Origin: Chiloscyllium plagiosum
Taxonomy: Eukaryota
Length of the DNA stretch: 64,000 bases
NCBI RefSeq assembly: GCF_004010195.1
Contig: NC_057755.1
Location: 3,867,462-3,931,461, forward strand
Reading direction: 5' to 3'
The translations under genes were made by a program, and so were the position numbers. The notes under the pieces are model-generated. The model saw nothing but the letters and a program-made list of their open reading frames with translations. It searched no databases and was not told the origin of the DNA. Positions 1,900-64,000 of the stretch are shown here, in pieces; within the stretch, counting starts at the first letter, position 1; each line of letters begins with the position of its first letter.

Positions 1900-2221
1900 N
1901 NNNNNNNNNNNNNNNNNNNNNNNNNNNNNNNNNNNNNNNNNNNNNNNNNNNNNNNNNNNNNNNNNNNNNNNNNNNNNNNNNNNNNNNNNNNNNNNNNNNN
2001 NNNNNNNNNNNNNNNNNNNNNNNNNNNNNNNNNNNNNNNNNNNNNNNNNNNNNNNNNNNNNNNNNNNNNNNNNNNNNNNNNNNNNNNNNNNNNNNNNNNN
2101 NNNNNNNNNNNNNNNNNNNNNNNNNNNNNNNNNNNNNNNNNNNNNNNNNNNNNNNNNNNNNNNNNNNNNNNNNNNNNNNNNNNNNNNNNNNNNNNNNNNN
2201 NNNNNNNNNNNNNNNNNNNNN
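1900..2221. other. Assembly gap
   Basis: Run of N. Confidence 1.
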
Positions 2222-2894
2222 CACAATACGCTAGCTGTGGCGTGGCCAATATTTTATACAGTTGCAGCATATTTTCCTTGCACTTCATCTCTATTAAAAG
2301 AACAAAAAATGTTCCTTATTCCTTTTGAACCATATTATCGACCTGTCATGCTGCCATAAGGTGTTCATGTGCAGCAAGGTCCCTTTGATTTTCAGTGTGT
2401 CTCAGGCTCATAACATTCTTCATGTTTTTCCCTTGCCTTGTATTTCCTTCCCATGTGCATCAGCTCACAAATCCTCATACTGAATTGAATTTGCCACCGA
2501 CCAGCCCATATCACCATCCTATTTACACCATCCCATAATCGAGGGCTATCCTCTTCACTCTTCAGCACTTCATCAATTTTTATACTGTCAGTGAACTTAT
2601 CCTGTATATTCCCCAGTATGTTGGTTTCCCGGTAGATGTGAATACCACCGTTCATCTTTAGTGGAACATGTGGGCCCTGTAATCTTTCTATTTCCTTCTT
2701 GAATGCATCCCACTCCTCTAACATGGATTCCCCTAAAAGTGTCTGCTCTCTGTCCAATCGCACACAATCTTATTAAAATTTGGGATTGCTCCAGTTTAGA
2801 GCTTTGATTTCTTGTCCTCGTCTTTTTCCATATTAATCTTGAGTTATTGTCATTGTCTGCAAAATTATTCCCCACTGAATTGCCATGTAGGAGA

Positions 2895-10087: not shown

Positions 10088-11690
10088 CATAGAACATAGA
10101 ACATAGAAGAATACAGCGGAGTACAGGCCCTTTGGCCCTCGATGTTGCGGTGATCCAAGCCCACCTAACTTACACTAGCCCACTATCCTCCATATGCCTA
10201 TCCAATGCCCGCTTAAATGCCCATAAAGAGAGAGAGTCCACCACTGCTACTGGCAGGGCATTCCATGAACTCACGACTCTCTGAGTAAAGAACCTACCCC
10301 TAACATCTGTCCTATACCTACCACCCCTTAATTTAAAGCTATGCCCCCTCGTAATAGCTGACTCCAAATGTGGAAAAAGGTCAACCCTATCTAACCCCCT
10401 AATCATCTTGTACACCTCTATCAAGTCACCCCTAAACCTTCTTTTCTCCAATGAAAACAACTCCAAATGCCTCAGCCTTTCCTCATACGATCTTCCTACC
10501 ATAGCAGGCAACATCCTGGAAAACCTCCTCTGCACCCGTTCCAGTGCCTCCACATCTTTCCTATCGTATGGCGAACAAAACTGCACACAATACTCCAGAT
10601 GCGGCCGCATCAGAGTCTTATACAACTGCAACATGATCTCAAGACTCCGGAACTCAATTCCTCTACCAATAAAAGCCGGTACGCCATATGCCTTCTTCAC
10701 CGCACTATTTACCTGGGTGGCAACTTTCAAAGATCGGTGTATGTGGACACCAAGATCCCTCTGCTCATCCACACTACCAAGTATCCGACCATTAGCCCAG
10801 TACCCCATCTTTTTGTTACTCTTACCAAAGTGAATCAACTCACACTTAGTTACATTGAACTCCATTTGCCACCTTTCTGCCCAGTTCTGCAACTTATCTA
10901 TATCCCGCTGTAACCTGCCACATCCTCCGACTTTCGTATCATCCGCAAACTTTCTCACCCAACCTTCTAACCCGTCCTCCACGTCATTTATAAAAATGAC
11001 AAACAGCAATGGTCCCAAAACAGATCCTTGCGGAACACCGCTAGTAACGGCACTCCAAGATGAACCTTTACCATCAACTACTACCCACTGTCTTCTTCCA
11101 GGCAGCCAATTTCTAATCCAAACCTCCAACTCACCCTCAATGCTACACCTCCGTATTTTATGAAGTAGCCTACCATGGGAAACCTTATCAAACGCCTTAC
11201 TAAAAGCCATATACACTACATCTACTGCTTTCCCCTCGTCCACCTCCTTAGTCATCTTCTCAAAGAATTCAATAAGGTTTGTGAGGCACGACCTGTCCTT
11301 CACAAAACTATGCTGACTATCCTTGATCACATTATTCCTATCCAGGTGTTCATAAATCCTATCCCTTACAATTCTCTCTCAGACTTTGCCCACAACAGAA
11401 GTGAGACTCACCAGCCTATAGTTTCTAGGGTTATGCCTACTCCCCTTCTTAAACAAGGGAACCACATTTGCGAGCCTCCAGTCTTCTGGCACTACTCCTG
11501 TAGACAACGAGGACATAAAAAGCAAGGCCAATGGCTCTGCAATCTCCTCCCTTGCTTCCCAGAGAATCCTAGGATAAATGCCATCAGGCCCAGGGGACTT
11601 ATCTATTTTCACCCTTTCCCGAATTTCCAACACCTCTTTCCAACATACCTCAAAGCCATTCATTCTACTTAATTGTGACTCAGTATTCAC
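10088..11690 (-). mobile_element. Relatively young CR1 LINE nested in an older CR1 (~9400-10087 plus ~11695-12190)
   Basis: 386-aa open RT segment with GVPQGSVLGP and FADDTK; (TTCTATG)n tail at 10088-10107. The older minus-strand element resumes in register on both sides. Confidence 0.93.
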
Positions 11691-16059: not shown

Positions 16060-17280
16060 AGGGCTGTAAATAGACAGGCAGGAGACTGAGATAACACAGC
16101 AAGCCAGATAGCATCAGCGGGTGGAGACATCGATGATTTGGATGCAATCGTTCTTCAGGACTGGGCTAAGAGGCGGTGGAGATGTCGACGTTTTTTTGTC
16201 TCTAATGACGAAATGTGAAGCAGAGATACTAACAGAAAGGTGATATATTTCCAATCAAGGAAGATGATTGACTTGGATGGGAATTTGTAGTGCATGGTGG
16301 TTCCATGTATCTGCTGCCCATACCCTTTGTAATGATGTGGGTTTGAAGGTACATTATTTGAGGAAATTTGGTGCATTTCTGCAATGCATCTGGTAGTTGG
16401 TACATATTGCTGCTACTGAGAGTCAGTGGTGGAAATAAGGTGGTTGTAGTGGCCATCAAGTGAACTGTTTTATCCCGGATAGTGTCAAGCATCTTGAGTG
16501 TTGTTGCAGCCTCACTCATCTCGGCAAATGGGGAGTTGTCCACCACACTCCTGATTTGGATCTATAAGATGGTGGACAGGTGGAAGTCAGGAAGTGAGTT
16601 ATTCCCTGCAGTATTCCCGCTTCAGTCCTGCCTTGTCACCATTGTATTAAAATGGATTGTCAACTTCAGAGTCTGGTCAATGCTAATCTCAACACGTTGA
16701 TAGTTGAGGAATCAGCAACGGTAACCTCATTGATGTCCCAGGGCGATGATGTGATTCTCTGTTGTTAGAGTTGATCACTGTCTGGCATTTATGTGTCATG
16801 TATGCGATTTACCACTTTTCATTCCAAGCCTGGATATTGCCCCGGTCTCACTGCATTTCGATAAGGACTACTTCAGTACCTGAGTAGTCGCACATACTGC
16901 TGAACACAGTGTAAACATCAGCTAATATCCCCATGTCTGACCCTGTGATGGAGAGGAGTCCATTGATGAAATTACCGAAGATGATTTGGCCGAAGACACT
17001 CCTTTGAGGACAGAGATGCCCTGCAGCTGTGGTGACGAACCTCAAAGAACCACAACTTTCTTCTTTTCTGCCAGGGATGACTCCATCCAGTGGAGAGATC
17101 CCCCGATTTCCATTGCATCCAGATTTGCTCAGGCTCCTTGAAGCCACATCAGGCCATATGCAGCCTTAAAGTTAAGTATTGTCAGCCTCAACCCACCTCT
17201 GGAATTCAGCTTTTTTAGTCCATGTTTGAACAAAGGCTGGAATGCGGTCAGGGGCTGATTGGTGCCACTGAGCAGGTTGT
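16060..17280 (-). mobile_element. Decayed LINE RT and 3-prime region (related copy at ~52800-53430 on +)
   Basis: QRSVFGQIIFGNFINGLLSITGSDMGILADVYTVF (RT motif remnant) and AATTLKMLDTIRDK. Clade not determined. Confidence 0.7.
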
Positions 17281-17562
17281 TGTCTGTCAGTGAAGCACGG
17301 ACTCTCCTGCGGACTCTCTCCACCCATCATCTATTCTTTAGGCCGTGGCTTTTTTGTTTCACCTCAGACTGCAGTAGCGTTTGCGCTTGTTTCCTTTAGC
17401 TGGAGTTATGGTGGAGATGCCGGTTCAGGACTACCTCACGTTTGCAATCTCGGAGATCCTGGATCTCCCGTTATTCTCACTAAGGGTCTCCACACAGCTG
17501 CTGACTGGGGAGGAGTTTCGGGTGGAACAGATGCTGTGGGCACTCTGTCACTCAGGTATCTT
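16863..17562 (+). repeat. Local duplication copy 1 (paralogous to 18555-19287)
   Basis: From aaggactacttcagtacctgagtagtcgca to cactcaggtatctt; includes a junction between two different LINE fragments. Confidence 0.9.
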
Positions 17563-18320: not shown

Positions 18321-18554
18321 NNNNNNNNNNNNNNNNNNNNNNNNNNNNNNNNNNNNNNNNNNNNNNNNNNNNNNNNNNNNNNNNNNNNNNNNNNNNNNNN
18401 NNNNNNNNNNNNNNNNNNNNNNNNNNNNNNNNNNNNNNNNNNNNNNNNNNNNNNNNNNNNNNNNNNNNNNNNNNNNNNNNNNNNNNNNNNNNNNNNNNNN
18501 NNNNNNNNNNNNNNNNNNNNNNNNNNNNNNNNNNNNNNNNNNNNNNNNNNNNNN
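18321..18554. other. Assembly gap
   Basis: Run of N. Confidence 1.
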
Positions 18555-19287
18555 AAGGACTACTTCAGTACCTGAGTAGTCGCAAATGCTGCTGTACACA
18601 ATGTAATCATCAGCAAATGTCCCCATGTCTGACCCTGTGATGGAGGGGAGTCCATTGATGAAATTACTGAAGATGGTTAGGCCTAAGACACTCCTTTGAG
18701 GAGAAAGAAGCCCTGCATCTGTGGTGACTGACCTCAAAGAACCACAACTTTCTTCTTTTCTGCCAAGGATGACTCTATCCAGTGGAGAGTTCCCCCGATT
18801 TCCATTGCATCCAGTTTTGCTCAGGCTCCTTGAAGCCACACCAGGCCATATGTAGCCTTGAAGGTAAGTACAGTCAGCCTCACCCCACTTCTAGAATTCA
18901 GCTCTTTTAGTCCATGTTTGGACTAAGGCTAGAATGAGATCCGGAGCTGAGTGGTGTCACTGAGCAGGTTGTTGTCTGTCAGAGAATCACGGACTCTCCT
19001 GCTGACTCACTCCACCCATCATCTATTATTTAGGTCGTGGCTTCTTAGTTTCACCTCAGACTGCAGTTGCGTTTCCGCTTGTTTCCTTTAGCTGAAGTTA
19101 TGGTGGAGCTGTCGGTTCAGGACTACGTCACGTTTGCGATCTCGGAGATCCTGGATCTCCAGTTATTCTCACTGAGCCAATCCTGGGGTTTCCTGTTTGA
19201 GAGGCTGAGGGTCTCCATACAGCTGCTGCCTGGGGAGGAGTTTATGGTGGACCAGATGCTGTGGGCACTCTGTCACTCAGGTATCTT
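18555..19287 (+). repeat. Local duplication copy 2
   Basis: About 85-90 percent identical to 16863-17562, with an extra ~33-nt block near 19173-19206; begins at the gap edge. Confidence 0.9.
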
Positions 19288-25162: not shown

Positions 25163-26489
25163 ACACACGGCAGTTGGCAAGTTGAAACGAAAGATTACCT
25201 TGCTTCTCTACATCTCACATCAGTCGTACAACCAATTGTGTTGACGGATTCTGACTTATGACGTTATGATTGAGGGAGTGGCAGTTATTCAGTCACTAAA
25301 CACAATTAGGCCTCAGACACAGTCTTGAGGAACGCCAGAAGTGAAGTCCTGGAGTTTAAATGGCTGACCTCCAACAAACAGACCAGTCACACGTCGACCA
25401 GACCAGGTAGAGACAGTAGTTTTCTTTCCCCAAAAGGACATTAGTGAAACAATGGGATTTTACAACAATTGACAATAGTAGTATTTGAGGCACAATTCCA
25501 ATTACACATTAAACTGAAGTTCCGGAATCCATCATGATAAGACTTGTCAGAGGTAGTGATGCAGATTTTGGAGATTAGAGTCAAGATTAGAGTGGTGATG
25601 GAAAAGCACAGCAGGTCAGGCAGCATCTGAGGAGCAGGAAAATCGATGTTTCGGGCAAAAGCACTTCATCAGAACGAAGGGCTATTGCCTGAAACTTCGA
25701 TTTTCCTGGTCCTCGGATACTGCCTGTCCTGCTGTGCTCTTCCAGCACCATTATAATCATGATAAATCGACCTGAGTCCATCATAATACTTTGGAAGTAT
25801 CTGAATATTTCGAACCCAAACGTGATACTTTTGTTCCAATAAACAAAATAAAGGTTTTCTGTTTTGTTATTTAACATTGTGTGTAATATTCATTTCTCAT
25901 TATTTGATTTCTACCAAATGAGAATGTAGACATAATGGGGCTGAAAATTTCATTTAATTGGATTGACTGTGAACGATTGTGAAATCATTTATGTTACCTC
26001 TGATTGAGATGGGTTCATGTATTTGCTCAGTGGGAAGCCTGAAGGAATCATGGATACGCCGAGTGAACTGTTTTCCTGTGCAAAGTAAGGTATTAAGTAG
26101 AAAGGTAGAAGAATAATATACGTGTGAGAGGCACATCTGTCATGCGTGTGCTTGAATGTGTGTGTGTAATATGCCACATTCTTCCACATTGTGAGTGTTT
26201 CATGAAGAATTCTTTCTTTCATGAAGACGTTGGAATGTCTTGATCCTCCAGGTGCTCTGGTTTCCTCCCACAATCCAAAGATGTGCAGTTTAGATGAATT
26301 GACCAAGCTAAAGTGCCCATCGTGTTCGGGTAAGACAAGGTTGGGTGCATTCGTTGCGGCTCGGTGTAGAATATTAGGGCGGAGGAGTGGGCCTGAATGG
26401 GTTGCCCTTCGGAGGTTCGGCATGGACTTGTTGGGCCGAAGTGCCTGTTTCCACACTGTAGGGATTCTATTCTATACAGTAGGTTTGGT

Positions 26490-27614: not shown

Positions 27615-28286
27615 TGAAGATTTATACCCCGTTGTAGGCCCTCTTAGTTTTAGGAGGCGTCAAAAGAATGACTTGGAGTACAATCTGTTTAAAACAAGGT
27701 TACCCGTTTAATAAATGAATAAATAGAAGTAGCCTGGGGGAGATTTGCCAAGCAACACGGAGGTTCAAAGTTTCTGTGCTCCGTAGAGAAATAGTGCAAA
27801 TACATTTGACAATTACACATTATTTATGTTTTTTATAGGTAGTACAGTCTGAATTACAAGAAAAGACCAATCATATCTAATAAGGTGACTTGATTTACAG
27901 CAGGTTAATCCAATGATATTTCCTGGGAAAAGGATCTTAATTAGCAGAAAAGTCCAATCAACTGTAATATAGTGACATGATTGACGACAGGCTAATCCAA
28001 TGATATTTCAAGGGAAACAGATGGTTATACGCATGTTTACTAATTCAAGTTTACCTCAAATACGAAATCACTGTCTTATAATTCATATTATGAAAATCCA
28101 TTATAATCTCTTATCTTCTATTTAGCTTAACTCAACAAAGCAGCAGCACAAGTTCACAGAGTCAAGTTCTTACTTTCAGCCATTATGTTGCGTTATTTTA
28201 AATTGAAAAGCCATTTCGTAGTTAATAAAAAATCTACATATATTTCTTGCATCTGACAACAGCTAAATCCAAATTAAATATCCTCA
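27615..28286 (-). repeat. ERV 3-prime LTR
   Basis: Bounded by TG...CA (tgaaga...atcctca). Minus-strand TATAAA at ~27832-27837, internal ~85-bp tandem repeat with CCAAT boxes, and a degenerate purine tract (cagggaa) adjacent at 28287-28293. Confidence 0.8.
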
Positions 28287-28335: not shown

Positions 28336-30303
28336 TTAATGCAATTCGATGGCAGTGGAAGACTGCAATCCTTTCTCTTCCTCTGAAAAGGAATCAGGGA
28401 CAGGCGATGATGCTTCCTCATCATCATCAAAGTGGAGAATTAGAATTTTCTGGGTGCAACCAATGTTGTCAATAGAAATTAATATTTTAGCAATAATACA
28501 CTTATCAATAGCAATACTAACAAAATGATCAAATGAACAATAGCAGCATACGTAGCCATATTGATAAGCCCTTTGTACCATAAACCAAAACCCCAGTCTC
28601 CCCACCCTGCACCTTCATTCATTTGGTTGACAGAAGTGCTGATGCTATCGATATGTCCAGTAATGTTTTCGATAAAGTTAGTGATCCCCATGATGCATTT
28701 TCCTTTGACTATGATGCAAACGCCACCTTCCTTCACAATAATGTAATCGAGAGCATAGCGGTTTTGTTGGGGAAATAGGCACAATTCTGAAAGCTCGTCC
28801 CTTATTTCAATTAGGAAGCAGTTGTCTCATTTCATGAGATTGTGGGTCCACAAATGTTTTGATAATTAATAACTCCTGAAGAACCTCTTTCGGAAAGAAC
28901 ACTAAGTGCTGCATATGTTAATGAGTGAGTTTTACTATTTGCTAGAAACTTTGGATCCTTCCATTCTGCACAAAAGTCAGAAGAAACTGAAAGTTTAACA
29001 CGCGAATTTGAATCTCGGTGCCAGGTAAATGGACAGGGAACAGGAGTTGGAAATGATGCTTCTACAGCTACAACTTGTGGAGTACTTGCTATATTCATGA
29101 CAAGATGCCTTACTATAACTGAATAATAATATCCAGATTTAGTATAGATAATGGAGGGACCTTCCCAATGAAAAGCGGGCCTATCTTTGTGACTTCCTGA
29201 GGTGAAAGTGAGGTCTGCAGATGCTGGAGATCAGAGATGGAAATGTGTTGCTGGAAAAGCGCAGCAGGTCAGGCAGCATCTAGGGAACAGGAGAATCGAC
29301 GTTTCGGGCATTAGCCCTTCTTCAGGAAGAAGGGCTAATGCCCGAAACGTCGATTCTCCTGTTCCCTAGATGCTGCCTGACCTGCTGCGACTTCCTGAGG
29401 TACCTGGGTAATCCTTGATTACATAGTTTGGTCCCGAACATAAAGGCTGGAAATCATTCAGTCTAATGAGGTGGGTCACTTGATAAGAAACGTGGTCGAC
29501 ATCGCAGAATGGTTCTACCCATCCAAAAACTGGGAAAATATGAGTGCAATTAGGTGTATCATAATGAAGTTGGTTGTGGTAAACCACCCCACAATGGGTT
29601 TGAATACCAGAGGTAATAGAAACACATTCCTCCTTTAGGATATGGGGTCCTTTTTTCAGGGAAACAGAGACATCTGATAAATTTAGGCATAGCACAGGGG
29701 ATACTTGTAGGCAATTTTACATAGGTACACTCCAATCCATGCACCCCCATCCCTTACTGTTGTAACAATTTGGATAGGATATTGCGGATTTACTGTAGGA
29801 AGTCCATTATCCTGTAAATACTTTAGAACTATTCGATACCCCCATGTTAGGATTTGGAAGGATAAAAGAGGTCTGGGAATCTATTGCTGAAGTAAAGGTG
29901 TAACTTCATCCTCTCCAAATATGTTATTATGGGTTTTGAGAAACAAATTGTTAGTGAAGGATAGCATCCAACCTTTCCTCTTTTACTGCATGATCTATCT
30001 GAAAGGGGACATGGCTTACCAGCGATGCCCATAGTACAAATGAAATTACACTGGCACACAACACCTTTAGAGGATAAAGACCATTTAGATTTGTTCTGTA
30101 AATGAACTGGTCAATTTTTTTGATGCAGTTGACCACTGCATTCGTCATTCTTCGTAACATTCAGTCTCTCGGCAAACAAGGACATCTTCCTGGCAGAGAT
30201 GGTGCACAGTCTCTGGTTGCTCAGGATCGCACAGGTAAACTGTCCCTTCCTGTGCTCCAAAGCTGGCAATGGCAAGCCCACACAGTAGGGCAAGTTCTAT
30301 CAT
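28336..30303 (-). pseudogene. env: Retroviral env pseudogene (gamma-type TM)
   Basis: Signal-like MIELALLCGLAIASFGA from 30303, Cys-rich SU fragments, mutated furin-like site RVKL, immunosuppressive domain QQNRYALDYIIVKEGGVC-x6-C and hydrophobic anchor AAIVHLIILLVLLLISVLLL. Many stops and frameshifts. Confidence 0.88.
29204..29388. mobile_element. Short Penelope-like insertion with inverted termini inside env
   Basis: Flanked by 13-bp direct repeat gacttcctgaggt (29191-29203 and 29389-29401). Contains a perfect inverted repeat 29260-29323 / 29326-29389. Confidence 0.85.
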
Positions 30304-35352: not shown

Positions 35353-36020
35353 TGAAGATCCAGACACCTCAAGAGAGGTCTCTTGTTTCGTAATCGGTGA
35401 AAAGATTCAACGGAATGTGGTCTGGAAAAAAGCAAGCGTCATTAGTTTATTGAATTAAGGCATCTTGATGCAATTCAGTTCAGCAACACAAAGGCTAAAG
35501 CTTTTGTGTTCTGTGGTGAAGTTGTGCAATTACATTGGAAAATTAGAGATTGTTTGTATGTTTTTAAGAGGTAGTGCAGCCTTAATTACAAGAAAAGACC
35601 AATCAAGTTTAATAAGATGACATGATTTCCAGCAGATTAACCCAGTGATATTGCGTGGGAACGGGTTCTTAATTACAAGAAAATTCGAATCAACTGTAAT
35701 AAGGTGACATGATTGACAACAGGCTAATCCAACGATATTCCCTGGGGAAGGGGTCTTAATTTATGTAAATGTCCACGTCATAGTAGCGGTTCAATGTTAG
35801 TTCGAATACACATCACTGTCTTATGAGAAATCCATTGTTCTCTTTTATCTCTGAATACAACCAAATTAGCAAAGCATCAGTTCCGGTTCACAGAGTCAAA
35901 TTATTGCTTGCAGCCATTTTGTTGTGTTATTTTAAATTGAAAAACCATTTTGTGTTTAATAAAAATCTGCAGATACTTATTGCTTCTGACAACAGCCTAA
36001 ATTCAAGTTTTAGATCCTCT
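35353..36020 (-). repeat. ERV 5-prime LTR
   Basis: Colinear with 27615-28286 (tgaagat...atcctct), same ~85-bp internal repeat at ~35584-35757, minus-strand AATAAA at 35446-35451. Confidence 0.8.
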
Positions 36021-36760: not shown

Positions 36761-36766
36761 TTTAAT
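36761..36766 (-). promoter_or_regulatory. Polyadenylation signal (ATTAAA) of defensin gene 1
   Basis: ATTAAA about 87 nt after the stop, followed by GT-rich ggtgttcactgtgttcc. Confidence 0.6.
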
Positions 36767-36852: not shown

Positions 36853-36986
36853 TTAATCTTGCGGTATATTGATACTTATGCAGCAAACGTAATGTTGTCT
36901 GCAACCACGACGACGCTCGAATTCATCACCGAGACATGTTTCAAATCTGCACTCCCCTCCGACAAATGTACATTTCTGGGATTGAC
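36853..36986 (-). CDS. Beta-defensin-like gene 1, coding exon 2 (mature peptide)
   Basis: Acceptor ctttgctttccag, then (R)QSQKCTFVGGECRFETCLGDEFERRRGCRQHYVCCISINIPQD-TAA. Six cysteines spaced C-x6-C-x4-C-x10-C-x5-CC with the G-x-C motif, a beta-defensin signature. Intron is 36987-37787 (801 nt). Confidence 0.92.
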
Positions 36987-37787: not shown

Positions 37788-37881
37788 GTTTAAAGGAAAG
37801 ATGTTGTTTCATGACTTCATCAGCAGGGCCTGACTGCACCATCACCAAGGCCACAAGAAAAAAGAACAGGACAGTTCTCAT
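37788..37881 (-). CDS. Beta-defensin-like gene 1, coding exon 1 (signal peptide plus short propiece)
   Basis: Minus strand ATG at 37881 reads MRTVLFFFLVALVMVQSGPADEVMKQHLSFK plus one base (C), then donor GTGAGT (37787-37782). Hydrophobic signal core; phase-1 junction compatible with the exon at 36986. Confidence 0.9.
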
Positions 37882-37931: not shown

Positions 37932-37938
37932 CTTATAT
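37932..37938 (-). promoter_or_regulatory. TATA box of defensin gene 1
   Basis: ATATAAG on the minus strand about 50 nt upstream of the ATG at 37881. Confidence 0.6.
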
Positions 37939-38039
37939 GTTACACAGGCTGTCCCACCGTTAATAATTGCAGAACCACAACACAGACAGAATCTGTGATG
38001 CACATGTGAAGACGTCATTTCAATTATGAGTCAAACAAT

Positions 38040-40489: not shown

Positions 40490-41340
40490 AGAGAGAAGAT
40501 GAGGAGTAGACAATTTGGCCCCTCAAACCTGCTTTGATATTCAACAGGATCATGTGTGTTCAAACATTTCTCCCATCCCCTTTCCTGCCCTGTCTCCATA
40601 ACCTTTGGTTCCCCCGTTTGATCGAGAATCTCTCTCTCTCAGCCTTAAATATATGGAGGTATTATGGCCCACATGGCTCTCTGTCACAAGGAGCTAAAAA
40701 TCTTTACAATCCTCTGAATGAAGAACACCTTCCTCCACTCAGTCTGCAATTGGAATTCCTTCATTCTGAGAGTCAGTTCCTTGTCTCCCCAATAAGCGGG
40801 AAGCATCCTCTCAGCATACTTCCTGTCAAGCCCCTTAAGAATCCTATATGTTACAAGTGAGATCACTTGTTATTCTCCTAAACTCCAGTAAATAGAGTCC
40901 AAAGTGCTTTAGACTTTGGTCAGAATGCAAACTCTTCATCCCAAGAATCTTCCCAGCGTAAATTCTTTGAACTGCTTGCAATGAAATTATGTATTTCCTT
41001 ACACATTGTGAACAGATGTGGTCCAAATGGTAAGAATTCCATACTCTAATACTGCAGCCCTCTTGAAGTAAGGACCAACATTCCAAACACCTTCTGGATT
41101 ATCTGTTGCCCCTCTGTGTGAGCTTTCTGTGTAATGTGCATAAGTTCCACTAAGTGCCTTTTTGTTGCAGCTTTCTCCATTTAAAGACGATCAACTTCAC
41201 TTCTTATCACATTATACTCCAATTCAGACTGCTTAACATCTGTCTAAACTATGAATATCTCTCCACAAACTGCTTGTATCCCTCTTTTGTCCTGCATTTC
41301 CAGCCATTGTGATGTCGTTTGCTATTTTGGAGACAGCATT
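40490..41340 (-). mobile_element. Old CR1 3-prime fragment
   Basis: YRILKGLDR...FFIQRIV, LQAVQR...LEFRR. Confidence 0.75.
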
Positions 41341-42601
41341 TTCACTTCCTTGCTGCAACTCATGAAGCCCCTGCAGGTCCCACCTTCTCAGTCTCTCCAC
41401 TCGCCTGGGGTGGGTGACCCCTCTATTTAAACCACCAGCAGCTGTCTCCCAATTGTTACACATTTCTTAAAGCTGCTGTTGTTTTCTTCAATATTTACCT
41501 CTGAAGCGGAACCAGTCGCCATCCTGTCTGACTCTCTTTCTCAAGCTGTTTGGAATCTTGCCTTCGCTGTGACAAACAGTTTACTCCCTGCCTGACTCAC
41601 AGCAAGAAAGGAGGAAGGCAGATGGTATGTTGGCCTTCAATGAAAGAGGATTGGAGTTCAGATTCGGGATGCTCACTGACGTTATGCAGGGACTTGGTAA
41701 GGTCACTCCTGCATTATTGTATCTGGTGTTGGTCCCCCTACCTCAAAGATGATATTCTCACAATAGACAGAGTGCCCATCGAGAGTGCTCCACCACGCAA
41801 TCGCTGAAATGATCATCATCAAACCCACTTCCCTGCCTTTTCCCCATTACTCTCCATTTACTTCCTGATTAAAAACCTCTCTATTACAACACATGAACAG
41901 GTCGTGAGTTGATGGATGCAGACGATGAGCAGGCAGATGAGATTAGAGGAGAATGGCATCATGGTCTGCACAGAAATTGTGGTTTGAATGGCCTGATGTT
42001 CTGTTGCACTCTTCGGAATTCCCAATGTGCTTGTATAATGTGAAAGCATGCAAGGCTGTGGACCAAGTGCTGTAAAATGGGACTAGAATAGGATGTGATT
42101 ACTAAGGTGGTGATGGCCAAGTGTTATTATTGTTTTCCCGTTAGTCTGTAGTCCCAGGTTTCGTTTGGAGGATGAGGTTCAAACAAGGCTTGGGCAGATT
42201 ATGCTTGAACTGAACTGATGAGTCAGAGGCTGGAATCAATGTCACAGACATCCCAGGCCAAGCTACGGCTGTGTCTGTCCCCTCAGGGAGTCGTTTATGG
42301 TCCTTGGGATCGTGCAGGAGGACATAAATTCCGGGCCAGATTTCACAGGTGACATTCCCATCTCAGCTAACACCAGCCAGTGATGTGTCCCACGACCTCC
42401 ACGAACAGCTCGATGGAAGATTGTAACGAACCTGCGCAATCCACCCCCTCGCATTCCCAATGGGCACACTCAATGGTCTGGCCCTTTAGCACGTTGAAGA
42501 TGGAGGCTGTGATAATTAACTAATGAACAGTTTATTTGTTCATATAATATGCTACGGTACTCCTGCACCTCACACTGTGGCTGGGCAGTGATCACCAGAG
42601 G

Positions 42602-42695
42602 ATGGTTAAAGCATTGAATTAGCTGATTCTGTCCCTGATAGTGGCCAAGCATTTCGCTGCTGATTGAGACAGGGAATCCTGGCTGTTGGTGGGAG
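42602..42695 (+). pseudogene. Candidate disabled defensin-type signal-peptide exon
   Basis: TATATAA at 42543-42549, ATG at 42602, reads MVKALN*LILSLIVAKHFAAD*DRESWLLVG plus G, then donor GTGAGG. Exactly 94 nt and phase 1 like gene 1 exon 1, with Ala-Asp at codons 20-21 in both; two in-frame stops. Confidence 0.45.
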
Positions 42696-46850: not shown

Positions 46851-48842
46851 GGAAGTGTTGGATCTTCTCAGAGAGTTGGACAGTATCTATGGAGAGAAGA
46901 AAAAACACAGTTCATGTTTCAGATGGTAATAAGATCAGTGCACAATGTTATCATCACTATAAGCTCATAAATGTAAGAGAAACACACTGTAGTGCAGGGA
47001 CAAAAAACTTGCGACTGTAGAGAAACTGAGGGAAGATAAAATTTATAAATTAGCAGCACATCGACAGTGAGAGGAATCTCAGTTAAACACAGTTGGCATA
47101 AGCAGAAGTTAAATACCTAACCATGCTAAAATACACTCATTATTTAATAGAGTGGAAGGGAGGCAATGGCAATGTGATAAAGATTTGTAGAGGTGAGACA
47201 GTGGAATGGATGGACAAAGATTCAGACCAACAGTAAGAAGCCACCACAGTCACAGAGACATCAAACGTTACACACGGAAAAGACTACAGCAAAAAGGAAT
47301 GACATTGGTGATGAAAGCTCAAAAAGCTCAGAAATAATTTCACTTCTTAAAAATATCCTGCTAAGTTTCAGGTGGAGCCTGCAACTGGAAAGCTATCGGA
47401 ACTCAGGTGTCAGAGAAAATCCTTAAATCTTAGGAAATACCCAGGATGGAGTAATGTCTCTGTGCCATTGTCACTCTGTGATGAAATCACCCACAGGAAC
47501 ACAGAGCATCTGGGTCTGTGCAAACTAGAGATCCCCCAACACTGGGAAGGATGCAGGGTTTCTGACAGGGGACTCAGAAGATTTACTAGCAAGGTTTGGG
47601 GAATGACAGATTGCAGTCATGAGGTTAGGTTGTAGACATCGGCATTGAGGGGAGATTTGACAGAGGGGGAGCAGTAGTTTATGATTGGTTAACAAAAGGT
47701 AAATAAAGTGAAGCTGTTTCCATTAGCTGACCATAAAAGCATCAGAGGAGAAGGATGTTCCATAGTGAGAATGCGAGAAAGAAATTTTATGCAGCGAATG
47801 CTCATGACCTTGGACTCAATGCTGACCCACAAACGCCAATAATGCTGCGATCTTGATACATTGATGGAGGTCATGTGTAAAAAGCACACTGGTCTGATAA
47901 ATGATGGAATCTGAATTGAGTCAAAACTAGCATTGTTCTGACAGAATTAATGTGAAATTCTCCCAATGGACTTAGACCAGATGATTCCAAGACAGCACAT
48001 CATTCGAAAGCACATCATCTTTCCACAAATTACTGTTTCATTCTGGAGAAATCTTTCGCTGATTCTGGAAATCTTTCCATCGACTCACGTTGTGAGACAT
48101 TGCCGATGTATTAAGGTCCAACTCACAGAAGGACATGGCTGGGAATACTCAACATATCAGGCAGGTGGGAATACACACAGTGAACATTTCAGCTCAACGA
48201 AATTTCATCAACATCTTCTTGAAGTGGGATAAGTCGGTGATATATACAAAAAGTAAATGATCTGGAGCCATTATGTAAGCGTGCAAACGAGAATCGAAAT
48301 CACACAGTACAGGAAGTGGTTGACATCTGGGGAGACATGCTCTGGAGTTAAGTAGAAGGGGGGGGGGATTAAAGTTTTATTTAATTGGATTAAACATTGG
48401 ATTAAAGTTTTGAGTTCAAAGTCACTGAGAGTCAGCTGAACTTGAAACGATAAATCTGCTTCTCTGTTCAGGGAGTGTATGCTCGATTTAGGAGGATAGA
48501 CGAAAACAATGGGAAGACTTTAAGAATCGGAGATGGAGGGAAATCCTTTGTTGAGCCCACTGAATTCTTAACATTTAGTGCGGAATGTTCTGTAATTCGG
48601 GAAATTGCAATCAGATCGTGTGGCTTTTATGTGTTAAAGAGTTCCTGGTTAATACATCTGCACGCCATTACAATTCCTACTAATCTTCCCCAGACATATT
48701 CCAGCCCAAATGGATATCAGTTTCTTGGAAACGTTAGAATCTTTCAATTTGTGGATAATGATCAAAGGAAAGTTTTAACTGCAAACAAATGTTTGAGACG
48801 AATTCTGTGTTATGTTACGGCTTGTATTTTCCTGAGCAGCTC

Positions 48843-50722
48843 TTGACCCTGGTGAGCACTGTGATGCTGTCTGGGGGGAATACAGTCTCTTCAGAACTTT
48901 ACCTGATCTCCATGGCAGTGACAGATCTCCTGATCAAGTCAACAACCATAACACTATCTGGTTTCTAGTCTATCTTTTCTATAAGGCTGCTGTGCACCAT
49001 TCCTGCAAATACATTTACTTCTGTCTTCAGTTATTTAGGAACTGGTAGTTCCAGCTGGTTGATTGTCATTTGGTCCGTATCGCTCAATTCGTTGCACATC
49101 CATATGCTTGTAGGGCCAACTACCTCCCCTGAGATTACGTTCCAGACACATACCACTCTCTGTGGCAAAAACACCTTGCCCCCACATTTGTTTGAACTTT
49201 CCTATTTTCATCTTGAATGTTTGCTTCATTGTTTAAGAAATTTCAATTCTGGGGAAGAGATTCTGACTGATAACTCCATTTCTGTGTCTCACAATTTTAT
49301 AGACTTCACCGAAGTCTCCACTCAGCCCCCTCTGCTCCAAGGAAAACAACCCGGGTTTTTCGAGAGTCTCCTCATATCTCATAACGTCTAACACAATCAG
49401 CATCCTGATAAACCTCTTCTGCACCTTCCACATCTTTCCTGTGACGTGGTGACAAGAATTAAACACGGCACTATAAGAGAAGCCAAACAACAGTCTTATA
49501 AAGCTGCAACATGACATCTTCATTTTCCTTTCTTCCTTGCACTTTGTGTCGAGTCCATGAGCTTCTGTACTTTTCCACACAGCTCCTTCATTTACAAACT
49601 TGACCTCAAAACATTACGCATCCCAAAGCCCCAGGCCTACAGCGTCGCCATGACAACCACCATGCTGCACTGTCCCCACATCAAAACAGGGACAGTGAAG
49701 GTGACTCGCACTTTCACAGTAACCCTTGCATCCATCCCCCTCTAATGTAGTGACTTTCCCACCCATTCCACAATTGCTGTCCACTCTGCCTACAGGCAGG
49801 CTGTCCCCACTGCTCAGAACTGGCTTCCCCAACTTCATTGCTCCTGCAGGGTCCCCCGAAGCCCTCCCTGAGAATTTCATCGAACTGATCCCCAATGACA
49901 GGAACGGACAGGGTCAGCATGGATTGGTGAACGGGAATTTAGGATCGAAAATTCTACCGGAGCATTTCGGGGATATAATAAGTAGTAAGTGTGGCCACCC
50001 CTCTGCTCTGCAGTGATACAGATTCCCTGATCTTGATTTTCCCAAACAATGTCAAAGTCGTTAGACATACTGTGCCAGTATCTCCAGACTGAATACTGTC
50101 TCCCTTGCCCTGACTGAGAACTTGTTTACTGAGGCTTTGAGACGTGCCCATTTGGTTGAAGTACATGCAGAGTGTTTGCTGCTTTAGCTGCTGTTCCAAG
50201 TGCCTGACAGTCCAGCCCCTTGACTGATCACCACTAACAACAATGATAAGCTGCCTGGCTTATGTCTGCGATAAACAACCAGGCAAGACAGGAGCACTGT
50301 GAATCATTAGGTTCTGGTTGAGCCATCAAAGTGCAAAAAAGCTAAGGAAAGGCAGAGATTTTGTGCCAGTCCCTGGGCAGGACATGTCTCAGGCGCTGGA
50401 AAAGTTGCAACGTTTTTGGAGTAATAAGATTCTTTGTGGGCAGATTCTACTACATCTTGATGCAGTGCTTTTATTTAACTCTGGCACATTGCACCCGCTC
50501 TGCAAGTGCCTATTGGACATTTTAATGTGAGAATTGGCTCTCTGAATAATATGCCGCTGACATGCACATTCGTGATGCCACACCCAATTGTCTCCTACGT
50601 CAGTGAATATGTAATCTGATTCAACCAACAGGCCTTTGAACTGAGAAAATAAAGCCTTCATAAACACACCTATTGATTTCAGTTGGTCTTGCACTCCGGT
50701 GAAAAACATTATTAAGTATTTA
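48843..50722 (+). pseudogene. GPR139-like GPCR pseudogene, fragmented exon 2
   Basis: 48843-48968 reads LTLVSTVMLSGGNTVSSELYLISMAVTDLLIKSTTITLSGF*, with a TM2-like YLxxMAxxDLL motif. Weaker colinear remnants follow a CR1 insertion: ILCQYLQTEYC (~50067-50099), DVPIW, FINTPI and VKNIIKY (~50699-50719). Confidence 0.55.
49035..49560 (-). mobile_element. CR1 3-prime fragment interrupting the GPCR pseudogene
   Basis: KVQKRFIRML...YEETLEKPGLFSLEQRGLSGDFGEVYKIVR. Confidence 0.85.
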
Positions 50723-51130: not shown

Positions 51131-52199
51131 GAATGTGCCATAAAGGGGCAGCACAGTGGTTTACACTGCTGTCTCCGAACACCAGGGAGCTGGGCTCGAT
51201 TCTGTCCTTGGGTGGCTGTCTGTGAGGTGTTAGCACATTCTTCTTGTGTATGTGTGGGTTTCCTTTTACATTCCAAAAGATGCGCAGGTCAGGTGAATTG
51301 GCAATGCTAAATTGCCCAAAGTGTTAGGAACGGTATTCACAGGTAAAGTAGGGAAATGATTAGGGGTGGGTCAATCTTCAGTGGACTTGCTGAGCCAAAG
51401 GGCTTGGTTCCACACTGCAGGGAATCAATTTTTTTTAAATCAGATCCTTTCCTGCTTCACAGTGTTCTCAAAATATCTCATTCAATACATCCGAATCATC
51501 CTCCTCCTCATCAAAATCCAAACTGTTGAATACTTCAATAGCTTTATCTTCTCCATTTCTTTTCTGAAATGCCGTTTGACATGAGGTAGAGCTGATGGAA
51601 AATTGGTGTTTCTTCTATTGTTCGGAACATGCACCAGGGATGAAGTGATAACATTGAGAGTGAGTGCTGAACGTACAGTAAGAGACAGATAGATTAGATT
51701 CGAGGACAAGTTGCCTTGACCAAACAAAATATTATGTACTCTTTCTTATGCATCGATTAGGTACACGAGAAATTAGGGAAACAACCAGAAAAGTGAACAA
51801 ATAAAACTGGTTTTCGAATATTTGAATGGGGAGTGCATCAATCCCCGAAATGTTGCAATACTAGGACGATGCACCAAGTTGATGTAGCAAGCTGCTAATC
51901 CATCTCCAACAAAGCGGGTGCGAGGTTGGTTTGGGGGTGTTGAAAGAGACTGTCCCACTGTCTTGCCCCTCCATGTAGCTCAGACTGGGAGGCTCTAAGG
52001 TGAACTTATGTGCATCATTGAAGAAATAATTGGAACATGAAGCAGTTATTGGGATAGAAGACGCGTGAAGAGCTTCGAGTGGAATGCAGGAAATTGGATC
52101 AGGGAATCGAACTGCATACAGGTAAGATGGACCAATTGGCCGCTTCTGTGCCACAACATTCTATCATTCTGTGATCTCTTCCTCTCTCTCTTGAACCAG

Positions 52200-52318
52200 G
52201 TCTGCCTTTCCGCTGTGGAAAAGACAATGGGAGATGCAGACTAAGCACGTGTGCAGAGAATGAGTTCGAAACTAATGGGAAGTGTCTCTTGTTCTTCAAG
52301 TGTTGCAAGAGCTTGTGA
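52200..52318 (+). CDS. Beta-defensin-like gene 2, mature-peptide exon (signal exon not firmly identified)
   Basis: Polypyrimidine acceptor ctcttcctctctctcttgaaccag, phase 1, then LPFRCGKDNGRCRLSTCAENEFETNGKCLLFFKCCKSL-TGA. Same 6-4-10-5-0 cysteine spacing as gene 1 and shared G-x-CR, TC and EFE. Confidence 0.88.
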
Positions 52319-52432
52319 GTTCCAACTGGGGAAGCATGGCCAAAGCGAAGTTCTGTTTGGTGCTAAATGCTGTCACTCCGCACTTGTGTCAGCGGCAATG
52401 TGTGACAAGCCCACTCTTCCTGCATTGACTTG

Positions 52433-52438
52433 AATAAA
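52433..52438 (+). promoter_or_regulatory. Polyadenylation signal (AATAAA) of defensin gene 2
   Basis: AATAAA about 115 nt downstream of the TGA at 52318. Confidence 0.65.
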
Positions 52439-53589
52439 ACTCACTGCATTCATGATCACTTCTGTTCTGTTTTCATTTCTCATGGAGAGAACACCATCCC
52501 ATCTTTATTTTGAAAGAATACCCATCTGGTCCAAGTCTCTCTCACAAGCAGAAACAACTTCTCCGCACTTACCCTGTCGTGTACCCTAAGAATCTTGCAT
52601 GATTCAATTAGGTACGAACTCAGTTTTCTAAACTCTGATGCGTACAGGTCCAGCCCTACTCAACCAATCCTCACAAGACATTCCCTCCATTCCTGGGATA
52701 AGTCTGATGACCATCATAAGTTTAAAGGTAGGTGTGTTCACCAAATACTGCACAATGTTGAGCACCATTTGAAAATTCGCAGATACTGAAATAGTTCATG
52801 TTCAAATGCAACAACATCTGAAAACCATCCAGGCTCGGGCAGTGATACTTGCTCGTCATAATTACTATACAATGACCATCTCAAATAAGAGACAATGTAA
52901 GCAACTCCACATGAAACTTGATGGTGCAATCTTCATTGAATCCACCACTATCAACACCCTCGGGCTTATCATTGACCAGAAACTCAAGTGAACTCACCAA
53001 TAAACCCTGTGATTACAAGAGCAGGTCAGAGGCTAAGAAAACTGTGGCAAGTAACGCCCAAAGTCTGTGCACCAACTCCAAGGCACAACTCAGGATGTGT
53101 TGAGATATTCTCCATTTGCCGGGGTGAGTGCAGTTCCAGCAACACTCAAGAAGCTCGACAAGATCCAGGACAAAGCAGACAACTTGACATCTACAAACAT
53201 CCACTCACTCTGTCACTGACACTCAGTAGCAGCAGTGTGTAAGAGCTACAAGATAGCACTGCAGAAATTCACTAAATATCCTTAGACAGGATCTGCCAAT
53301 ACGCTTTCATTGTGAAGGACAAAGATAATTGCTAAATTGGAACACTACCACTTGCAAGTTTCCTATGAAGCCATTCAGCACCCTGATTTGGAAATATATC
53401 GTCTTTCCTTCACTGTTTTCGTCTACCAACAGCAGACGGAATGTGACGACTCAAGAAAACAACTCAGCAAAACATTCCCAAGTCACCCAGGAATGGGCAA
53501 TATATGCTGGACCCAGTCAGCAATGCTCATGTCACACGAGTGAATTAAATGCGAAGTTCCCTCCCTGGCAGTGCCTTCCAGATCTCTGC

Positions 53590-56500: not shown

Positions 56501-57900
56501 TGCAAAACTTTGCTCTGTCCACTTGGAAACCTGGTTCAGGTACAGCCTGTCAATGACTGAGGGATGGACCATATTCTGCACTTCACCCGATGAACCCTGA
56601 ATCTTACTTGCCCGGCTTGTTTATGAGCAGGTACACAAGTCTTATCCCAGGTATAGAGGGGACTGTCGCGTGAGAAGAGATTAAGTGGATTGGCCCTGCG
56701 CTCATTAGAGTAAGAAGAACTTTACTGAAACATATAAGTCTATCAGGGGATTTGACAGGCTAAATAGAGAAAGGTTCTTTCCCCTTTTAGCAGACTCTTG
56801 GACCAGAAAGCATCACTTCATAGTAAGGGGTTGTCCACTTCAGGCTGATCTGAGGGGAAATGGCTTCTGCCATAGAAAATTAAAACTGCAGCATTCTTTA
56901 TCACAGAGGGCTGTGGAGGATGGATAATTAAGTATATTCAAGATTACGACAGAAAGATGTTTAATTCGGAAGGAAATAAAAGATTGAGTGGAAAATACAT
57001 AGAAATGGACTTGAGGATGATCAGATCAGTTAAGATCTGATGGAGTGGTGGAACAGTCTCGATGGACACTCTGCAGATGGTGAAAATGTCCTCTTTGTGG
57101 TAGGGAGACTAAACAACACACACTGCTCCAGGGCTGGTTTCACCAAGTCCCTGTCCAGATTCAGTGAGGCATCTTGAATCTGAACTCCAATCCTTTTGCA
57201 ATGGAGGCCAACCTTCCATTTGCCTTCTTCATTGCTCAAGCAGTGAGTAAACTGTTGGTTCACAGTGAGGGCAAGCTTCCAAACAAGATGGCAGACAGGA
57301 TGGCGACTGGTTCTGCTTCAGAGCTGAATATTGAAGAAAACATTAGTTGTTTATAAGGAATATGTAACTATTGGGAGACAGCTGATGATGATTTAACCTG
57401 GGGATCACCTGAGGTTGAAGAAGATGAGATCTGCATGCTGTTAATGACTTGGAACAAAGAAGTGAATGTTCTGTGTTCAAAACTGCAGACAGCGTAACAA
57501 TGTGGCAGGGTTTTGGGGAAGGCAGCTTGCAAGAGGGGTGAAACCATTTTATGGAGAGTATTGATAGTATCAGTCAGTGGGCATAACTTTGACAAATTGT
57601 GTACAATGTTGGAATATGTGATGTTTTACATCTTGGAGGGGAGAACAAAAGCACAGATTATTGAAATGGAGAAAGTTGCAACATAAATCAATTTGGGAGA
57701 ACATGGAAAACGAGCACACGGGGCAGCTTGTGATCGGGAATGGCAATAGAATGTTGGGTCTCATACTTACAGGAGGGAGTATCATAGTATCATAGAGGGA
57801 TTGGGATTTTTAAACCATGTAGGGAGGACTAATGTGTCATTGTGTCGATACTGGTCATGGAAGATTAATCTTTTCTAATCCTATATTCCATCATTTAGCT
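53590..57900. mobile_element. Patchwork of old CR1 fragments on both strands with a short Penelope-type insertion (~53875-54100)
   Basis: ERLNKWFPRMLLGLE...LGLFSRE (55572-55760), RGHRF (56046-56294) and others; boundaries approximate. Confidence 0.7.
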
Positions 57901-60845: not shown

Positions 60846-63800
60846 TCATAGCTGTAAAATATCAAAAAAGATCAGTTATCATGGCAGAGCAAAGAAATAC
60901 TGGGGATGTAAGAGGAAAGTTCTTTCTTAATGATCGGTTTGAGGGCAGATGTATTTCAATTACAAAAGGATGATGTTCCCACGCAATGATAATGCATGTT
61001 GTTCAAATGTGATTTCCAAGCAGAGGCAAATGTTTAATGTATAAGCACCGTGAAAAGTGAGGGAAGTGAGACCATTGTAATTCTGGTCAAGTGTGAACCC
61101 CAGTCATCTGACAATATGGTGGAGAAAAAGGGGTAGATAATGTGGGTTAATTAATATTGTGGAGGCACGAAGGTAGAGATAACACAAACAAACTGCCACA
61201 CTGCACCATTGCCTACCCCTGCCACGCTGCATTAACTCGCCTCAATTATCAACAAAACATACAAGAAGTGCAGTGAATTAACACTGAATACTTTACTTTC
61301 AATGTGGATTCCTGCAAGATTTAGAAAATGAATAATATGCTGTTCATCATTCAGTTTAAAATGTAAAGATGTATGCAACATGTATAAAGGCAGAAAGTAG
61401 AGTTAAACTATACGTTGGTCAGAAGCTCGGGCAGACCCGCCGTGCTCCTTCAGCAAAGTAAACTGTCCAGACATCTATCGTCAGTTCTGTGTTATAGATG
61501 ATTTCTTTTGGACAGGTATCTCAATTGAAAGAAGTGGACGTTCATCTCAGTCCCAGCTAGAAACATTTTTGTGACCCTGTCGGTGTAGATGAAAGGAAGT
61601 AAGAGCGAATGAAACACATTTACTCAGTCAGAAAAGTACCAAGTGCTTTACAACTGCTCTGCCCGGGACCGTAAGAAACTACAGAAAGTTGAGAACACAG
61701 CCCAGTGCATTACACAAGCCAAACTTCCTGCCATTCACTCAATCTACACTTCTTGTTGCCTCAGAACGGCAGCCAACATCATTAAAGACTCTTCCCACCC
61801 CCGTTAAATCCTCTTCCAAACTTTTCCGTCAGTCTGAAGATACAAAAGCATAAACATGCATACCAATAGGTTCAAGAATATTTTCTTCTCCGCTGTTATT
61901 TGACTTGTGAATGGATCTCTCAAATTTAAAATCTAATGATGATCTTGCTTTTTGTGCACCGTCGTTGCAGCTGTAACTTTATATTCCTCGCTCTGTTCAA
62001 TCACCTGATGATCTTCGTGTCTTTGCATGCTAAAGTCTGCTGTTCGACAAGCAAACAAATGATTTTCACAGTGTACAGGTAGATATGACAATAATAATAA
62101 AACAAATCAAATCATATCAAAGGTGAAAGGAGAAAGGACAATGACAGAGATGATGGAAGCGGTCGAACATCAAAGCCAGTGGAATAACTTGTGAGGACAA
62201 GACGTGCTGTGTTTTTGATAGAGCTGAAAAGTTTGAAATGCCAGAGGATGGCATGTTGAATGTTGAGGGTGTTGCTGAAATATGAAAAGTGCATCACTGG
62301 GAAAGTTGCTAAGGTGGCACTGATGCTTTCACAAAGAAAAGTATCCTGAGAAGAAACAACAGTTCGGGCAATTACAGTCAGAGTCATTTTGGAGTCAGTG
62401 GCTCTGGAGAAATGTTGGTTAAAAGACGATGGACTATATAGGAGTTGGAGAAGTCATAAAGACAGAGAGGTTTATAACGCAGAAAAAGATATGCACTTTG
62501 GCCTGTAGAGTCTATGCTGGTCAAATTCAATTGCCTAACAATTCTCATGTAGTTTTCCAGCATTAGGTCCATAACCCTGCCATTACAACTACACACATAA
62601 ATAGTTCTGTTATCAGGGTATCCGCCTCTACTGCCCTTACAAGGAGCCATCTAGGGAGCCAAACTCTGGCTACCTGCAGCCTGGAGGAAGAATGCCTCAT
62701 CTTCCGCCTTGGGACCACCCCCCCCCACCCCCACAAACACAAGAGATCAATGTGGATTTCCCCTCTTCCCACCTTATCCCAGATCCAACCTTCCAACTCG
62801 GTGTCGCCCTCTTGAACTGTCCTACTTAACCATCCTCCTGCCTATCTATCCACTCCACCCTCCCCTTCGACCTATCACCATCACTCCCACTTTCATCTAA
62901 CTATTGCATTCCCAGCTACATTCCCCCACAACAGCCCCCCTCCCATTTATGATTCAGCCCCCTTGGGCCGCTCCCTCATTCCTGATGGAGCCTACTAAAA
63001 CGTCGACTTCCCTACTCGGCGGATGCTGTCTGAGCGGCTGTGCTTTTCCAGCACCCCACTATTCTACCCGTCCAGGCAGTAATTTCCAGATTGCCACCAC
63101 AGTCTCAGTGGCAAACGAAACATCCTGCCTCTTTGCATCCATGCCCCGGTCATTTACAAGCCCAAAAAGGGGAAAACGTATGTATTTCAATGCTGTCTAT
63201 GCTCCTTATGATTCTATATATTGAAACCACGTCCGCTCAAGAATCTTCCCTGCCCCAACGAAAACAAGACTAATCCATCCAATCTCGCTTCGTACCTAAA
63301 GCTTTCCAACATTGGAATCATCATGGAAATCTCTGCATCATTTCCAGGGCAATGAAAATACACCTACCTTGTGGATTCCAGAACTGCACACAATACGCTC
63401 GCTGTGGCGTGGCCAATATTTTATACAGTTGCAGCATATTTTCCTTGCACTTCATCTCTATTAAAAGAACAAAAAATGTTCCTTATTCCTTTTGAACCAT
63501 ATTATCGACCTGTCAAGCTGCCATATGGTGTTCATGTGCAGCAAGGTCCCTTTGATTTTCAGTGTGTCTCAGGCTCTTACCATTCGTCATGTTTTTCCCT
63601 TGCCTTGTATTTCCTTCCCATGTGCATTAGCTCACAAATACTCATACTGAATTCCATTTGCCACTGATCAGCCCATCTCACCAGCCGATTTACACCATCC
63701 CATAATCGAAGGATATCCTCTTCACTCTTCAGCACTTCATCAATTTTTTCCTGTCAGTGAACTTATCCTGTATATTCCCCAGTATGTTGGTTTCCCGGTA

Positions 63801-64000
63801 GATGTGAATACCACCGTTCATCTTTAGTGGAACATGTGGGCCCTGTATTCTTTCTATTTCCTTCTTGAATGCATCCCACTCCTCGAACATGGATTCCCCT
63901 AAAAGTGTCTGCTCTCTGTCCAATTGCACACAACCTTATTAACATTTGGGATTGCTCCAGTTTAGAACTTTGATTTCTTGTCCTCGTCTTTTTCCAAATT
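60846..64000 (+). repeat. Segmental duplication copy B (paralogous to 1-2834)
   Basis: Starts tcatagctgtaaaatat (cf. tcacagctgtaacatat at 1) and continues to the window end (cttgtcctcgtctttttcca, cf. 2811-2830). Confidence 0.95.

Follow-up and report, generated by a model that had tools for sequence, protein, structure and literature searches.

The 64-kb window (the whole stretch of shark DNA analysed, 64,000 nt) carries two oppositely oriented exons encoding six-cysteine peptides: the flagged exon at 52200–52318 on the plus strand, here called gene 2, and a paralogue on the minus strand, here called gene 1. The gene 2 exon is preceded by a polypyrimidine tract and a phase-1 splice acceptor, CAG|G (52160–52199, plus strand, AG at 52198–52199), with a pyrimidine fraction of 0.86 and an AG-free run of 71 nt; 14 of the 8268 AG sites in the window, its own included, are equal or better. 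A split codon is completed by the first two bases of the exon, after which the frame stays open over 38 codons to TGA at 52316–52318, and a polyadenylation signal, AATAAA, follows at 52433–52438 (plus strand). The encoded mature peptide has six cysteines spaced 6-4-10-5, a net charge of about +3 (seven Lys/Arg, four Asp/Glu) and a pI of 8.7. These coordinates and the rank of the acceptor bear out the open exon, strong acceptor and AATAAA described in the original prediction, and its word 'intact' holds for exon 52200–52318, where no lesion was found and the six cysteines, acceptor and AATAAA are all preserved, but not for the gene as a whole, for which no intact first exon was found.

Gene 1 is, on its sequence signals, an intact two-exon gene. 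A TATA-like CATATAA (37933–37939, minus strand) lies 58 nt before the ATG of exon 1 (37788–37881, minus strand; 31 codons plus 1 nt), which encodes a hydrophobic signal-like stretch and a propiece and ends in a phase-1 donor, AAC|GTGAGT. An 801-nt phase-1 intron separates it from exon 2 (36853–36986, minus strand), which encodes the mature peptide with the same 6-4-10-5 spacing, a charge of about 0 and a pI of 6.7, and is followed by the polyadenylation signal ATTAAA (36761–36766, minus strand). When spliced, the gene gives an open frame of 75 residues comprising a signal-like start (judged by hydropathy only), a propiece, about 14 residues long, whose final Lys-Arg is created by splicing, and a mature peptide of 43 residues; the precursor would be cleaved at this Lys-Arg.

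A loose six-cysteine motif occurred exactly twice in the six frames of the window, in gene 2 and in gene 1 (36972–36880, minus strand). Across 150 windows simulated with an order-3 Markov model the loose motif averaged 0.067 per set, with seven sets holding one, and the exact 6-4-10-5 spacing appeared in none, which rules out a chance motif. The two peptides align without gaps, sharing 12 of 31 residues across the cysteine span (six of the 12 being the cysteines; BLASTP E=5e-07), and the predicted pattern C-x4-G-x-CR-x2-TC-x3-EFE-x4-C-x5-CC is exact in both. Together with the shared spacing, this supports the proposal that gene 2 is a beta-defensin-type paralogue of gene 1. Over the same span the DNA is identical at 43 of 93 positions, and blastn between the two exons returned no match. 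Because the peptides align ungapped and yet blastn finds no match in the DNA, the split between the genes is old, as had been proposed. The predicted cluster is likewise upheld by the two paralogues, 15 kb apart, and by many similar copies in three organisms (see below); further defensin exons were not found within the window by six-frame HMM, relaxed motifs or nhmmer.

The 6-4-10-5 spacing and the shared EFE had also been offered as marks of a possibly lineage-specific subfamily. The spacing is not lineage-specific, since three of the 66 Komodo dragon beta-defensins in Table 3 of PMC6716921 have it (VkBD27, VkBD47 and VkBD60, the last appearing as VkBD61 in Table 2), and the range given for Podarcis lizards, C-X(6-7)-C-X(3-5)-C-X(8-14)-C-X(5-7)-CC (PMC12278569), includes it. 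Five residues before the final CC, outside the strict X6-CC consensus, are found in 42 of the 66 Komodo peptides, and 13 of the 66 are neutral or anionic (PMC6716921). EFE fares better in part: it is exact in both window peptides and, by eye count, in none of the 66 Komodo peptides tabulated, so that it may be a local trait of these sequences, though a signature cannot be drawn from two of them. In Table 2 (PMC6716921), again counted by eye, VkBD47 shares 14 of the 31 positions with gene 2 and 13 with gene 1; as the best of 66 these are selected values, but they place VkBD47 closer to each shark peptide than the two are to each other (12 of 31). VkBD47 also carries the whole C-x4-G...CC pattern with PWE replacing EFE, VkBD27 has FE at the EFE position, and Glu stands four residues after Cys3 in ten of the 66 peptides tabulated. 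A cartilaginous-fish-specific defensin subfamily, defined by 6-4-10-5 and EFE and containing genes 1 and 2, would agree with the two features common to both peptides, with the absence of exact EFE from the Komodo set, with first exons that are colinear (provided the decayed exon at 42602, described next, belongs to gene 2) and with the lack of any database relative found. We nevertheless consider it doubtful, given that the spacing recurs in the Komodo dragon, that VkBD47, albeit as the best of 66 by eye, lies nearer to each shark peptide, that VkBD27 keeps FE, and that two sequences are all that back the signature.

Among the candidates listed on the plus strand, no open signal exon was found for gene 2. 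A search by nhmmer with the first exon of gene 1 matched 42540–42676 (E=0.058), where a TATA-like CATATAA (42541–42547, plus strand) lies 61 nt before a decayed signal/propiece exon (42602–42695, plus strand), the best candidate for the first exon of gene 2. This exon has the length of gene 1 exon 1 (31 codons plus 1 nt) and a phase-1 donor, GAG|GTGAGG, whose phase joins exon 2 of gene 2 in frame, and it carries stops at codons 7 and 22. It lies head to head with gene 1, the two TATA-like boxes facing apart with 4.6 kb between them, in agreement with the divergent orientation that had been predicted. After the ATG, 41 of 91 nt are identical to gene 1 exon 1, a score that none of the other equally long non-self ATG..GT pairs, 158 in all, attains (mean of the rest 22.9, maximum 36; z 4.8), and the candidate is one of two of these pairs with a TATA-like word and one of four with a GT[AG]AG donor. 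When 2000 codon-shuffled queries were run, 13 reached this score anywhere and none at the 42602 site. Two further sites were rejected as first exons, 31789 being devoid of an ATG and holding a stop, and 49504 lying inside a LINE remnant.

The search between 42602 and 52200 found no other mature exon, and the simplest reading of the sequence is that 42602–42695 would be gene 2's own first exon across a putative 9.5-kb intron. Given the two stops in this best match for a first exon, the window's copy of gene 2 is probably a pseudogene. The window does not yield an intact gene 2 on either reading, because both first-exon candidates are broken, the second being a weaker alternative at 51595–51672 (plus strand). 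The balance of evidence leans, by a little, towards the flagged exon being a beta-defensin-type exon that is present in many copies in three organisms and probably represents what survives, one half, of a gene now disabled. The intactness of exon 2 would be compatible with a recent death of the gene.

We consider it unlikely that the copy works, whether through a first exon that went undetected (hidden by an N gap, lying beyond the window or diverged too far) or because the lesions are assembly errors. A working copy would fit the preserved exon 2 with its six cysteines, acceptor and AATAAA, as well as the three N gaps in the window and the many sites at which the window differs from every contig, which suggest private changes or assembly errors. 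Yet the plus-strand scans yielded no open signal exon among the candidates listed, the N gaps lie at least 27 kb upstream, on the far side of gene 1, it is improbable that assembly error produced both of two separate stops, and an intact exon of 38 codons would fit a recent death too. Expression data were sparse: about 2/100 of one single-cell RNA run gave no reads on 51430–52600, a sample too small to be informative, and none of the listed read sets holding the gene 2 exon region was an RNA run.

Less probable again is that the subfamily's first exon is 51595–51672, frameshifted in this copy, with 42602 an orphan of a lost third gene; the copy would be dead regardless. This candidate lies 527 nt upstream of exon 2 on the correct strand, was the best non-self match among 4033 donor-anchored windows (the window length having been picked after the match was seen) and coincides with a peak in contig depth. 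Of the variants listed, four hit third positions in its frame, and in three organism-C contigs, which continue at 51598, the ATG is in frame with a hydrophobic run. In the window, by contrast, the ATG is out of frame, a TATA-like word is lacking, the hydrophobic core has seven residues and the donor is weak, with a stronger donor out of phase. At the DNA level it is no more like gene 1 exon 1 than chance allows (301 of 500 controls did as well), one organism-B record spans the region gap-free, and other contigs carry unrelated sequence before 51628. The candidate also overlaps a probable repeat remnant, its opposite strand resembling what is left of a retrotransposon gag, for which Pfam and PDB searches gave nothing.

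Returning to the flagged exon as part of a probably disabled gene, parts of the gene 2 exon region were present in twenty DNA runs from three related organisms, probably sharks, and the best run contained 0.73 of its words. For a copy count, one DNA run each of organisms A, B and C was aligned at 85% likeness to 51430–52600, an interval that takes in neither the 42602 exon nor gene 1; with the RNA run above, the analysis covered four of the 24 runs listed. This gave 166 (A), 137 (B) and 113 (C) contigs, of which 24, 11 and 9, respectively, were at least 99% alike, and all 30 bins were covered; contig depth is not copy number, and these totals overstate gene copies because part of the interval, its ends included, is interspersed repeat. 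Inside the gene itself the multicopy signal nevertheless persists. An identical coding variant at 52234 appears in twelve organism-B contigs, and the overlap of five separate organism-B records at 52034–52061 exceeds what two alleles could give; in organism C, 52046–52283 is spanned by two records with 11 and 17 differences. In organism A, two divergent contigs match the gene 2 exon and rejoin the window at 52432, by the polyadenylation signal. The gene 2 exon belongs to a recent multicopy expansion.

Among the 40 of 324 differences that were listed, one falls in the coding exon, the change from Arg to Ser at 52234. Since Ser is found there across all of the B and C depth and about half of that in A, the Arg of the window is probably recent and confined to a subset of copies. 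Among the ten indels listed, none falls in the coding exon, as would happen by chance about 1 time in 3 (not significant).

The ends of the window may indicate the scale of this expansion. A composite direct repeat has its left copy at 1–2834 (plus strand), reaching the window start and holding an N gap, and its right copy at 60846–64000 (plus strand), reaching the window end; the copies lie about 61 kb apart and are 94.2% alike over 1899 nt and 95.8% over 613 nt. This suggests, to judge from the window ends alone, a tandem segmental duplication of a unit of about 61 kb holding both defensin genes. The history would then begin with an old inverted duplication giving rise to genes 1 and 2, after which a recent segmental duplication would have multiplied the unit and some copies would have died, a course of birth-and-death evolution.

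From the layout of gene 1 and from what is known of the family, an intact member would be transcribed from its TATA promoter, spliced over one phase-1 intron and translated into a prepropeptide of about 70–75 residues. This would be secreted and cleaved where the propiece ends, at Lys-Arg in the case of gene 1, and the mature peptide would fold with disulfides 1-5, 2-4 and 3-6. By analogy, the cationic gene 2 type may attack the membranes of microbes at epithelial surfaces, and for the neutral gene 1 type cell signalling may be more likely than microbe killing.

Membership of the beta-defensins appears to be indicated by the motif, weak profile matches, gene layout and clustering. The gene 2 peptide matched Pfam Defensin_beta (PF00711) over positions 2–36 of the 36-position profile (E=0.004, 17.6 bits against a gathering cut-off of 21) and Defensin_beta_2 (PF13841; E=0.0042, 17.9 bits against a cut-off of 22.2); gene 1 had no Pfam match. 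In the ESM Atlas beta-defensin clusters came first for gene 2 and gene 1 (0.84 and 0.81, to be read as leads), and of the matches with an assigned family, the ten best for each peptide were all beta-defensins. The six cysteines have beta-defensin spacing ending in CC, and all six lie, with the stop, in one open exon in both genes, not in the three-exon layout of teleosts with cysteines split 4+2; the usual cationic character is shown by gene 2, gene 1 being neutral. None of CTSB, XKR6 and MTMR9 was recognised among the long open reading frames of the window.

Homologue and fold searches added little. The protein word-index search with both mature peptides and the gene 1 first exon found no relative, a HMMER scan of 1.84 billion representative proteins returned three matches, all long repeat proteins and not relatives, and PDB sequence searches gave nothing relevant. 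Two metagenome-contig scans with the same patterns gave 222 pattern matches, none of them confirmed, and Rfam returned no match. AlphaFold models from the two sequences had pLDDT of 57.5 and 52.9, too poor to use, and four fold searches matched no defensin. That the peptides belong to a different family of small secreted proteins with six similarly spaced cysteines, a reading that could draw on the sub-threshold Pfam scores and the want of a homologue or fold match, is very improbable, as beta-defensins account for both of the matching Pfam families and, among Atlas matches with an assigned family, for the ten best per peptide, and layout and clustering match those described for tetrapod beta-defensins (PMC3978493, PMC11541337).

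Among systems already described, squamate beta-defensins are alike in the 6-4-10-5 spacing (VkBD27 and VkBD47) and in large clusters with recent tandem duplication (PMC6716921, PMC12278569), with cationic, neutral and anionic members reported side by side; they differ in that exact EFE was counted by eye in 0 of the 66 Komodo peptides of PMC6716921. Mammalian beta-defensins (PF00711, PF13841) share two exons with six cysteines in exon 2 (PMC3978493, PMC11541337), and the Pfam match of gene 2 extends over nearly the whole profile. Their canonical spacing, however, ends in X6-CC (PMC6716921), gene 2 scores under the gathering cut-offs, and gene 1 is set apart by a propiece, about 14 residues long, that closes with Lys-Arg. 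Teleost beta-defensins (zebrafish BD1-3, sea bass, seabream and flounder) have a similar six-cysteine motif, precursors of 60–77 residues and, in flounder, a propiece (PMC3978493, PMC8231796). Their genes are described as having three exons with cysteines split 4+2 (PMC11541337), whereas the shark genes have six in one exon, and as numbering up to seven in salmon (PMC8231796) and being unclustered in seabream and sea bass (PMC11541337), whereas the shark exon is multicopy.

Humans and birds are described as having all six cysteines in one exon (PMC3978493), and since both shark genes share this layout, parsimony would make the teleost intron derived. We regard as evenly poised the broader proposal that carpet sharks possess an extensive, as yet unannotated repertoire of tetrapod-type two-exon beta-defensins, still growing by segmental units tens of kb long, that the clustered layout with one mature exon and the 6-4-10-5 spacing shared with lizards date to the jawed-vertebrate ancestor, and that the few three-exon teleost genes are derived. 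If true, such an expanding shark family would fill a gap in the antimicrobials of cartilaginous fish, for which section 14 of PMC6795676 lists no isolated antimicrobials besides transferrin, squalamine and kenojeinin I; it would also polarise teleost versus tetrapod exon structure and provide novel natural peptides for assays. The literature searched, mostly without subscription journals, contained no title devoted to shark defensins, which does not establish absence from print. The locus thus presents a known family and a real exon in a lineage where we found the family undescribed, with an ordinary spacing and a copy that is probably dead; for these last two reasons the gene 2 exon itself matters less.

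Mobile elements are abundant elsewhere in the window, with about 13 kb of LINE remnants matching CR1-type proteins. At 10173–11378 (minus strand) an open frame of 401 residues encodes a CR1-type reverse transcriptase. Its closest eukaryote-named relatives are from Hemiscyllium ocellatum (81% over 65% of the query), Chiloscyllium punctatum (67%) and Stegostoma tigrinum (67%), followed by rays at 52–58% and birds and turtles at about 39–52%; by score, the top record is 75% identical and the next, labelled Klebsiella, 71%. These matches point to a carpet shark as the probable source of the DNA. The relatives labelled Klebsiella pneumoniae or Proteus mirabilis lie on contigs of 1–2 kb, and one shares a 90% cluster with a Chiloscyllium protein, which suggests shark DNA contaminating bacterial assemblies.

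A retroviral env-like remnant in short frames occupies 28482–29230 (minus strand), the frame at 28482–28826 matching Pfam TLV_coat (E=2.5e-05). Related copies at 27751–28285 and 35482–36019, 75% alike over about 550 nt, each contain an 87-nt tandem unit, and with the env remnant these may be parts of old LTR elements. A short acidic frame at 51432–51620 (minus strand), which resembles the start of a Gypsy-type retrotransposon gag, had no Pfam or PDB match and shows high contig depth in the DNA runs of all three organisms. Likewise, a decayed frame at 48738–49110 (plus strand), for which Pfam and PDB searches gave nothing, resembles the first helices of a GPR139/142-type class A receptor.

Several repeats were also observed. 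Hairpin-like inverted repeats of one short family lie at 25581–25762 and 29260–29389, the former and latter comprising, respectively, 87-nt arms that are 85% complementary and 64-nt arms that are 100% complementary across a 2-nt gap. A local direct duplication (16863–17562 and 18555–19287, 87% over 733 nt) flanks the N gap at 18321–18554, and an inverted pair at 41305–41882 and 56951–57502, 71% alike over 590 nt, brackets the gene 2 region including the decayed first exon.
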